From assembly GCA_963693365.1 (NCBI GenBank), contig CAVNZM010000006.1, forward strand, positions 8,039,264 through 8,103,263: a stretch of DNA of 64,000 nucleotides, read 5' to 3'. Position 1 is the first letter of the stretch, and each line of letters starts with the position of its first letter. The stretch is from Amoebidium appalachense (Eukaryota; Protista; Ichthyosporea). This document shows, one piece after another, positions 26,529 to 28,900 of this stretch. The position numbers and the translations under genes were made by a program. The notes below the pieces were generated by a model. That model was given only the letters and a program-made list of their open reading frames with translations. It was not told the origin of the DNA and searched no databases.

Positions 26529-28900
26529 ATGGCACACCTAACACAAAACCCGGCCGACCCCAAACGCTGGGTGTGCCTCTATCCCATTTTTCCTGAACGG
26601 TGAAAAAACAATAGCAGAAGGGAGACGCATCTCAAAGGAAAAGGCAGTAAGCAACCCACCACCCTCTCTCCCCGAGATAGGAGAGGCTCTGAGACTACTC
26701 ATGTTGCCGGCAACCGGGGAGGGTAAGATGCACCCAAGGGATTTTGAAACTATGGGGAGGGCGCGAGTACAGATCAAGAACAGGTGAGATCTTCCCCCTC
26801 CCCCCCCCCCCCCTCCCCTCTCTCCCTCCCCCCCCCCCCCTCCCCCCCCCCCTCCCTTCGCCTCATTTTTATCCTCTTGCAAACCTTAATGTTTAATGCT
26901 CAGAATGCACTTCGGGCACCCTTCCTAAGTCTTACGGTTTAGATTAGGGGGGCCCGTCCGCTTCCTTCTCTCTTTCAACCTCTCTCTTGACTAGCCCTCT
27001 CCCGTAATCTCAGCTGTAAGACATGGGTGTGTGTTCAAACACCAGCTAGCGGTGCTGCCTGACTGTGCATGCATGTGTGTTCGGCGGTGAAAGCGGAAGG
27101 GGCAAGGGGAGAGGGGGGGAGGGGGGGGGGAGGGGGGAGGGGGGGGGGGGGGGCGTAACAGGAGAGGATGGGTGGTGGGGGGGGGGAGGGGGAGGGCGGG
27201 GAGACTCTCCAACGTTCCCTCTCCTCTTTCAACCTGTATGTCTCCTCTTCATCATCTTGGTGCTTGTTTTCTTTCCCTTCAAACATAATATTGACTGTTG
27301 TTTTGTTGTCATACCTCTTCTGTTCTCATCCTCAGCATAATGCAGCAAAGTTTTAATTCTCTCTCTTTCCAGTTGGGTTGATCTTTATCAATGTCCCCGC
27401 CCTTCGCCCCCTCTCCCCCCCCCTTGCTCTCTCTATCTCTCTCTCTCTCTCTCTTTCTCTCTCTCTCTCTCTCTCTCTCTCTCTCTCTCTCTCTCTCTCT
27501 CTCTCTCTCTCTCTCTCTCTCTCTCTCTCTCTCTCTCTCCCTCCCCTCCCCCCCCCTTCTCTCTCTGCCCGCTGCCCGCTTCACTTCCTCTCCCTCGCTC
27601 TGCTTCCTTCCTGCCTGCCCCTCCCCCGGCCAACCTTTTCCCCTGTCCCCCCCCCCCCCCCTCCCCCCCCTCCCTCCCTCTTTCCCTCTTCCTCCTTCCT
27701 TCTCTCCCTCGGCCTCTCTCTGCTCCCCAATGTCCCCTCTCACATCAAATTCAATGTCCCGTGAATGTCTGTACGTATGTTGCATGCTTTCTCTGTGCTC
27801 TTTTTTTGTCATCTGCGTTGTTACTCGTTGTGACTTCTTAGTTCATACTGTGTACCGTTCTTCTGACCTGTTTCATCCCTTCCTCCCAACACAGACACAA
27901 CATATACACAAGCACACATGTACGCACACGCACACACATACACACACATGCACACGCACACGCACACACACGCACACGCACACGCACACACACACACCCA
28001 TCCTCTCCCCTTCCCCCCGACACCACACACACACACACCCGTCTCTCTCACTCTCTCTCCACCTCTGTCCCCCCCTCCCCCCCCCCCCCCCCCCCCTCCC
28101 CCTCCCCCTCCTTCTCCATAGGCTAGGGAGTCGGGGAGCTTTGTAGAAGCCCAGCTTATGCTCTGCTTCTCTGCTTGTTTTCTTTGTTTTTGTCTGCGTG
28201 CAGTTTTTGTAGACTGTTTTCTTAGATTGCTGTTCCTTGAACAACCCTGCTCGTCTTTGGCCAAGACGGGTGGACTCGCCTATTGCTGTTGAAACAAAGT
28301 ATGGGTTGGGAACCACACGCGAGAGGTTAAAGAGTCGAAACCCATGCTTTTGTGGAGGCATAGGAACCCTCCTGATGATGGGCTCTGTTCAAGTGTCTTC
28401 TGCCTGGCACGCCTAAATTGTTTGATTTTGGATTTCCCACTTTTGTGACGTTTTGTTGTTGCTCGTTGTTGTCCCCTCCATATTTCCAACCCTTTAACGC
28501 ATACATCAAACCCCCCCCCCCCCCCCCCACACACACACACACACACACACACACACACACACACACACACACATTCCCCATCCCCCCCCCCCCCCCCCCC
28601 CCCCCCCCCCCCCCCCCCCCCCCCCCCCACACACACACACACACACACAGTGAAGGCAAGCCCCTCAACCCAGCCATCACAAACCGCCAACAACTCTTCG
28701 AAGCCGTAGCCGAAAAGATTAAAACCCTGGACCGCGCCTCAATTCCACGCCCCGAAATGCCCCGTCTCGTTCTCCCCCCACAACAACAGGCCGGCCCGTC
28801 GGGGGCCGGGCCGTCCGGGATTTCTGCTTCGGATAGTGGTGAAGCTTCAACGAGTTCGGGCGCTAACCCGAAAAAGAAGGGAAAGAAGGGGAGAAAGTAA
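26529..28900 (+). CDS. SRP19: Signal recognition particle 19 kDa protein, 2 exons
   Basis: Exons 26529-26783 and 28651-28900. MAHLTQNPADPKRWVCLYPIFLNGEKTIAEGRRISKEKAVSNP..GKMHPRDFETMGRARVQIKNSEGKPLNPAITNRQQLFEAVAEKI..KKKGKKGRK matches SRP19 motifs (YP..KT.AEGRRI; GR.RVQ.K; basic tail). Needs one T removed from the T5 run at 26587-26591. Confidence 0.93.
28236..28393 (+). ncRNA. Candidate permuted/pseudoknotted hammerhead ribozyme (subfamily A)
   Basis: GTT 28305-28307, GAAA 28337-28340, CTGATGA 28372-28378. Stem III AAAGTATGGGT/ACCCATGCTTT; closing stem CTTGAACA/TGTTCAAG. Pairings covary with subfamily B. Confidence 0.55.
28236..28510 (+). mobile_element. Poly(C)-anchored repeat, subfamily A, most complete copy (SRP19 intron), with hammerhead-like structured RNA
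   Basis: Clear similarity to 16812-16975, 55667-55832, 55856-55985, 55420-55480, 39861-39958 and 52902-53088. Ends CCTCCATATTTCCAACCC..CATACATC followed by poly(C). Confidence 0.75.

Follow-up and report, generated by a model that had tools for sequence, protein, structure and literature searches.

How can a hammerhead ribozyme be wired when its conserved segments run in the opposite cyclic order, and on which side of CUGANGA does its second stem II strand lie? This question is raised by a repeat of the ichthyosporean protist Amoebidium appalachense in a 64,000-nt stretch of genomic DNA (the window; GenBank assembly GCA_963693365.1, contig CAVNZM010000006.1, forward-strand positions 8,039,264 to 8,103,263), where three copies from two diverged families, named A and B, carry hammerhead core bases. 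An earlier note on the window had proposed the three copies as a new hammerhead topology, with stem II closed by a strand just downstream of CUGANGA. Judged from sequence and register, the hammerhead-type core at these copies is genuine. The strand order is already known, and what is probably new is a split CUGANGA block: the strand that carries G10.1 is probably located at 28273-28277, rather than just past CUGANGA.

In all three copies, the first strand of stem III, the triplet GUU, and the first strand of stem I are followed by a stem II strand, GAAAC, and the second strand of stem III, and then by the second strand of stem I, CUGANGA, and a U. The residue at the predicted cleavage site (N17) is located at 28307 in A, at 47243 in B, and at 7807 in a 5'-truncated B copy, and CUGANGA, GAAA, the A15.1-U16.1 pair, and the NUH site are complete at each. 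Stem III (11 bp in A and 9 bp in B) and stem I (3 bp in A and 4 bp in B) stand in exact register with the core, and the register is also kept by stem II, which has 5-6 bp with G10.1-C11.1 in both families. At 28370 most of the depth in two DNA runs reads C, with which the three pairs of stem I in A become all G-C. The sequences of stem III, stem I, and two further helices (an interaction helix between stems I and II and a hairpin, P5) diverge between A and B while the pairing is kept, and N7 is the sole core base that differs (CUGAUGA in A, CUGAGGA in B). When both window strands were scanned for an S>G>C core (site, then GAAA, then CUGANGA) with at least 4 bp in stem III, at least 3 bp in stem I, and exact register, exactly three sites came up, namely the N17 positions above; the same core appeared in 11 (A) and 8 (B) of 100,000 dinucleotide shuffles each, about 1 in 10,000. 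Homology between the two families extends over the entire motif (nhmmer E 3e-14 and 9e-14). The Rfam 15 hammerhead families did not match the A copy or the B copy near 47 kb at E ≤ 10, and no ribozyme family of any kind turned up at these two copies or among the best 150 of 323 rows for the whole window. Much of the earlier note is thereby borne out: the pseudoknotted core in opposite cyclic order, the cut positions, the variable N7, the stems I and III that differ and still pair, and a motif that the Rfam hammerhead models miss here. The scan above is the permuted-descriptor search that it had suggested, and the full-length Rfam match that could have explained the motifs otherwise did not appear at either copy.

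The circular order of canonical hammerhead types I-III is not found here, the blocks running in the opposite order. Eckert et al. (2023; PMC10085705), in the accessible text, divide the hammerhead into the blocks S, G, and C, which can be arranged in six permutations, and the 5'-to-3' order S, G, C found here is their type-SGC. That type (HRIMA-1 and variants) was validated by cleavage and compensatory mutation, and the text reports it from metatranscriptomes only. Because this order had been published, the strand order can no longer count as the novelty that the earlier note saw in it. As in type-SGC, the Amoebidium motif possesses pseudoknotted stems I and II and all core bases in that block order, together with a fourth helix: in type-SGC this ties stems I and II together at their distal sides (helix 'I' in that text), and its analog here is the interaction helix 28279-28283/28360-28364, with an equivalent in B. 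There are, however, differences from type-SGC as the text describes it. Block C is intact in type-SGC, whereas in the Amoebidium motif A9 is preceded by its predicted G10.1 strand at a distance of ~100 nt, and two helices, P1 and P2, form a predicted four-way junction. The linker from stem I to stem II, typically 3 nt in type-SGC, is 21-22 nt here and contains P5, and the sequences are genomic DNA repeats instead of metatranscriptome RNAs.

In the upstream pairing, 28273-28277 with 28332-28336 (GACUC/GAGUC in A, GACCC/GGGUC in B), five of five pairs are Watson-Crick in both families, including one compensatory change from U-A to C-G. The downstream pairing drawn in the earlier note, 28331-28336 with 28381-28386, forms six ungapped pairs after a 2-nt insert past A9, but none of the six shows a two-sided change between A and B, three become G-U in B, and its strand overlaps the 3' strand of P1 and a CUC bulge. 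This stem II can form; as the main pairing it is probably wrong. Because the strand on the GAAA side pairs better upstream, the CUGANGA block would be split between A9 and G10.1, and the unusual feature is a CUGANGA block parted from its own stem II strand, since the G10.1 strand probably lies upstream. An intact block C (at most 1-2 nt from A9 to stem II) is formable in the window, uncompensated, and is not found in the related families. Compared with the earlier note, the core and stems I and III stay as drawn, and 28273-28277, the interaction helix, P0, P1, P2, and P5 were overlooked.

If the repeat were instead a plain type-SGC hammerhead exactly as drawn there, the upstream pairings would be incidental. 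The six ungapped pairs are present in both families, the text of PMC10085705 permits a 2-nt insert, and the fold arises in 0 of 100,000 shuffles, as does the full split model for each family. Such a reading pays, however, with G-U at half of its pairs in B, gives no account of P1, the conserved P2 module, or the compensated strand upstream, and fails in the related metagenome families; we regard it as very unlikely.

Judged by pairing capacity, it is these related sequences that decide in favor of the upstream strand over the downstream one. A pattern without a pairing rule, run on 24 of 64 parts of a metagenome contig collection, found at least 119 loci; the following counts refer to the loci listed, 61 of which belong to two repeat families. 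The core is present in 47 loci, all within these two families, and in none of the other 58. Among the 47 cores, the upstream stem II strand is found in 39, a stem II of the downstream type in four, and the full split model in 22. In an alignment of the 50 family copies with enough flank, the share of paired cells was 95% in the upstream stem II, 91% in P1 and likewise in P2, and 96% in the interaction helix, compared with 21-51% in the three downstream stem II registers. One two-sided change between the two families is seen in P1, one in the interaction helix, and one in stem I; stem II is invariant between them. For family B, covariation is based on the window copies, and patterns specific to A or B found nothing in the metagenome or viral contigs scanned. 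With a looser pattern, 36 loci came up in viral contigs, all by eye either chance matches or ordinary type II hammerheads, the latter seemingly in contigs L007, L015, L024, L030, and L031, and two viral loci from the generic pattern are by eye unrelated.

A similar arrangement can be read in Naiads, Penelope-like retroelements of animals. The available parts of Craig et al. (2021; PMC8557442) report them without a canonical hammerhead and flag eight as 'HHR_half_core', with core halves 35-50 nt apart and no fold. In eight Naiad consensus-tail passages of the supplement, located by term searches, the split wiring and the same tail fold are readable by eye. These passages add four stem II pairs (GACAC/GUGUC, GACGC/GCGUC, GGCUC/GAGCC, and GGCCC/GGGCC), and the linker from stem I to stem II in the Naiad-type examples is 0-6 nt by eye. 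Three other tail passages (supplement parts 13 and 16) are by eye complete type-CSG hammerheads, a type that the accessible text describes from only two metagenomic sequences. Type-CSG has the cyclic order and the interaction helix in common with the present motif; the split form equals a CSG opened between A9 and G10.1, with its CUGANGA half moved to the 3' end, whereas in type-CSG itself CUGANGA is contiguous with stem II and P1 and P2 are absent. The intact CSG in three Naiad passages suggests that the split form may have arisen by such an opening in a tandem repeat. No Naiad-like tail fold was seen among the Chlamys passages that came up in the supplement.

The same three passages make plausible a tandem-duplication intermediate that holds both stem II strands, and thereby a switch between two registers, in which the upstream strand would give the split fold and the downstream GGCUCU the intact type-SGC fold, e.g. 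in 5'-truncated copies or at another transcription stage. Either register, G10.1-C11.1 included, provides 5-6 bp in each family, and the downstream strand is the same in both, its partner shifting only to G-U. Nevertheless, the downstream register lacks two-sided changes, costs P1 and the upstream stem II, and is missing from 43 of the 47 metagenome cores, so that we allow the switch only a small chance.

With the upstream strand as stem II, the split fold can be proposed as follows (Table 1). The domain is closed by P0, which shows three two-sided changes between A and B; P1 is invariant between A and B, and P2 has a predicted pairing probability of about 0.95. Single bases join A9, P1, P2, and G10.1, which would correspond to the layout of a four-way junction. 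The interaction helix (CCUAU/AUAGG in A, CCCAAGU/ACUUGGG in B) begins one base past the 5' strand of stem II and, together with stem III, would form one long hairpin. The apical loop of this hairpin would hold the GUU site, the stem I strand, the 4-bp hairpin P5, and the stem II strand with GAAA, and would pair back to the feet of the hairpin, stem II with 28273-28277 on the 5' side and stem I with 28369-28371 on the 3' side. Past A9, the chain would leave the core via one U into P1 and P0; P1 would stack on P2, and P2 would return through one base to G10.1. The four-helix junction would take the place of the usual A9-G10.1 step, and the standard core would be rebuilt, with a cut 3' of U28307 in A and of U47243 in B. 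In the cell, the cut would likely free element RNA from precursors made by read-through or from tandem copies, ahead of reverse transcription, which is the role that the accessible part of PMC4209133 proposes for other Penelope hammerheads. From the observed sequence, register, pairing capacity, covariation, and repeat anatomy, we infer how the RNA folds in three dimensions, that it cleaves, which class of element carries it, and what it does in the cell. On this modeling, it is on balance probable that the full domain folds as a split-core hammerhead, cuts after U17, and trims element RNA from longer transcripts.

Table 1. Predicted features of the split-core domain and repeat copies in the window (window positions; strand as + or -)
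Feature	Position	Strand	Remarks
Family A, complete predicted split-core hammerhead domain	28237..28392	+	closed by P0: 28237-28243 with 28386-28392
P1, 5' strand CCC	28245..28247	+	pairs with 28380-28382 (GGG), one base (U28379) past A9
P2 hairpin, 9 bp	28249..28271	+	stops 1 nt before G10.1; near-identical in A and B
Stem II, 5' strand GACUC	28273..28277	+	G10.1 = 28273; partner 28332-28336
Stem I-II interaction helix, 5' strand CCUAU	28279..28283	+	partner 28360-28364; 7-8 bp in B
Block S: stem III 5' strand, GUU, stem I 5' strand GGG	28296..28310	+	predicted cut 3' of 28307
21-nt linker with hairpin P5	28311..28331	+	directly after stem I; AACC/GGUU (A), AGUC/GGCU (B)
Block G: stem II 3' strand GAGUC, G12-A13-A14-A15.1, stem III 3' strand	28332..28350	+	G12 to A15.1 at 28337-28340
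Interaction helix 3' strand, stem I 3' strand, CUGAUGA, U, P1 3' strand, conserved CUC bulge	28360..28385	+	stem I 3' strand 28369-28371; CUGAUGA 28372-28378
Family B, complete predicted domain	47156..47316	-	stem II 47279-47275/47216-47212; N17 47243; CUGAGGA from 47177
Family B, 5'-truncated copy	7786..8007	+	blocks S, G, C; without upstream stem II strand, P1, P2
Family A, whole repeat copy	28107..28510	+	C runs at both bounds; motif ends ~120 nt before 3' end
Family B, whole repeat copy	47059..47436	-	C runs at both bounds
Family A, partial tandem of two 5'-truncated ends	55667..55982	-	55982-55855, then 55837-55667
Family A, diverged 5' part only (P0a, P1a, P2, stem II 5' strand)	55415..55531	-	without blocks S, G, C
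Family A, 5'-truncated, decayed copy	16813..16975	+	
Family B, 5'-truncated copy	12084..12232	+	block C only
Family A, 3' end only	39862..39962	-	
Family A, decayed 3' end	52901..53066	-	
Family B, decayed 3' end	45804..45917	-	

Several findings weigh against the split-core reading. Nested folding favors hairpins that bury CUGANGA, the program being unable to score pseudoknots, of which there are two here. The downstream stem II is likewise formable in both families, and its CUC bases are conserved, yet unpaired in the split model. The covariation statistic is weak (29 of 500 shuffles), only two full window copies being informative, and, according to the text of PMC10085705, A9 and stem II are never more than 1-2 nt apart in published hammerheads. 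Among the metagenome cores, those that do not pass the full descriptor are cut short or mutated; the pattern that found them had been designed from Naiad tails, so that the resulting families are not an unbiased sample, and both are close to one Naiad group in the supplement passages of PMC8557442. One of the Naiad passages shows an A-C mismatch in stem II and another has a stem I of 2 bp. As for the carrier, Naiad and Chlamys elements have an open reading frame (ORF) with GIY-YIG at the N terminus and reverse transcriptase at the C terminus, but a scan of 237 of the 257 listed ORFs of the window revealed neither domain, no convincing reverse transcriptase motif stands beside the metagenome family copies, and the C-run target preference agrees with Chlamys, not with Naiad.

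The competing hairpins over CUGANGA, together with the short stem I and the GUU triplet, also bear on whether the structure cleaves at all. It could be hammerhead-derived and non-cleaving, kept because the reverse transcriptase of the element binds it or uses it to recognize the 3' end. Between A and B, conservation of the P2 module goes beyond the needs of catalysis, and metazoan Penelope minimal hammerheads are described as poor cleavers in vitro in the accessible part of PMC4209133. However, A, B, and the Naiad-type families retain every invariant core base and obey the NUH rule while the stems turn over, and in File S2 rows several Penelope hammerheads of the Hydra clade are entered with U as the cleavage-site base. 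We consider loss of cleavage unlikely, though not far-fetched.

Another possibility is a tRNA-derived short interspersed element (SINE), in which GUCGAAAC would be a B-box-like element and the rest chance. We take the GAAA block to resemble a Pol III B box, and A carries an A-box-like string ~75 nt upstream. The A-box match is missing in B, however, neither ARAGORN nor Rfam finds a tRNA there, and the core and helices lie far beyond chance in the shuffles, which makes a SINE scarcely credible. Nor do the helices map to an HDV-like, twister, pistol, group I, or RNase P fold, and these readings were dropped.

The repeat anatomy points in the direction of retroposition. The motif stands 100-120 nt from the 3' end in both 5'-truncated families, and a C6 run is present within 20 nt of the copy 3' end in 8 of 10 copies against a background of 7%, the remaining two having C5. 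The copies are interspersed with the exons of three genes, namely a PHD-bromodomain gene, SRP19, and dymeclin. In two public DNA runs, 1363 and 1369 contigs align to the family A copy; these are contig counts, and summed depth is not equated with copy number. No RNA run is among the public runs listed for the motif. In a further run, presumed to be RNA, the motif is present, its 5' domain is covered less deeply, and coverage does not step at 28307; contig depth shows neither ends nor levels, and the run was not used either way. By analogy, the carriers are likely Penelope-like (Naiad-type) retroposons: 5' truncation, a partial tandem (55982-55667), and a bias for insertion into microsatellites are features of Naiad and Chlamys, and the available parts of PMC8557442 likewise place the Naiad motif ~100 nt from the 3' end, with microsatellite-type flanks. 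The element class remains an assignment by tail and anatomy, because no reverse transcriptase was found and no coding region was seen. Compared with the Naiads of that source, which occur in animals and prefer (TA)n, the host here is a protist, the copies end in C runs in the manner of Chlamys (C)n, and the tail has the extra hairpin P5. The copy at 7786-7895, which the earlier note had listed as a further example, has the core in the same order but is 5'-truncated, its upstream domain being absent, and is a natural control between the split and intact folds.

The text of PMC10085705 assumes that block C tolerates no interruption beyond 1-2 nt, and its permutation scheme treats CUGANGA and the stem II strand as inseparable; the predicted split between A9 and G10.1 would break the assumption behind the six published permutations. 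If true, it would be a natural covarying counter-example that widens the allowed hammerhead wiring, and engineered ribozymes would gain a further site for insertions. It would likewise explain the apparent lack of hammerheads in Naiad retroelements, since descriptors cannot see the split form, and would extend non-circularly permuted hammerheads from uncharacterized metatranscriptome RNAs to high-copy eukaryotic repeats. The boldest combination, namely a working hammerhead split at A9/G10.1 by a four-way junction as a seventh wiring, a hidden ribozyme of the Naiad lineage present also in a protist, and a dual-strand intermediate switching between split and intact folds, is doubtful, and we put it forward tentatively. 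In the case of the CChMVd (+) hammerhead, an extra A between A9 and G10.1 is described in the accessible part of PMC1636495, which shows that this step tolerates an insertion; it is a single nucleotide, compared with a two-helix domain here that holds the chain ends. The literature searched, which excluded most subscription journals and the figures and alignments of PMC10085705, describes no split CUGANGA block, and, with most subscription journals likewise excluded, no permuted hammerheads in Penelope-like elements.

Some loops of the domain have features of their own. The asymmetric A/CUC internal loop between P0 and P1 (28244 with 28383-28385) is the same in A and B and finds no explanation in the split model; it resembles a C-loop, and a kink-turn at this position was rejected, as there is no tandem G-A. 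The P2 loop (28257-28264, and 47295-47288 on the minus strand) is self-complementary, with UUGGCCAA in A and UUGAUCAA in B, and the two changes between A and B preserve the palindrome, which hints weakly at a possible dimer contact. The P5 loops (28315-28324, and 47234-47224 on the minus strand) both keep ACGCG; in most public A contigs a G at 28317 gives the palindrome CGCGCG, and the loop in B is overlapped by a 10-nt palindrome, a possible kissing site.

The neighboring genes comprise exons of a BRPF1-like EPL1/PHD/bromodomain gene (4797-20872, plus strand), SRP19 exon(s) (26542-26784, plus strand), and dymeclin exons (37625-58298, minus strand), and the sequence between them abounds in C runs and (CA)n. 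In this otherwise intron-rich region, an intronless transporter ORF is located at 32154-33818 on the minus strand, and its relatives carry PF00474 (sodium:solute symporter). Its best relatives are those of Creolimax and Sphaeroforma (48-54% identity), with a patchy distribution over ichthyosporeans, green algae, chytrids, and a haptophyte; in the tree, the ORF falls into a 10-row clade with ichthyosporeans and Emiliania, the branching within which is not settled. Two identical tRNA-Asp(GTC) genes (12753-12824 and 22939-23010) have flanks of ~107 nt in common at 94% identity, and one of them lies between exons of the PHD-bromodomain gene.
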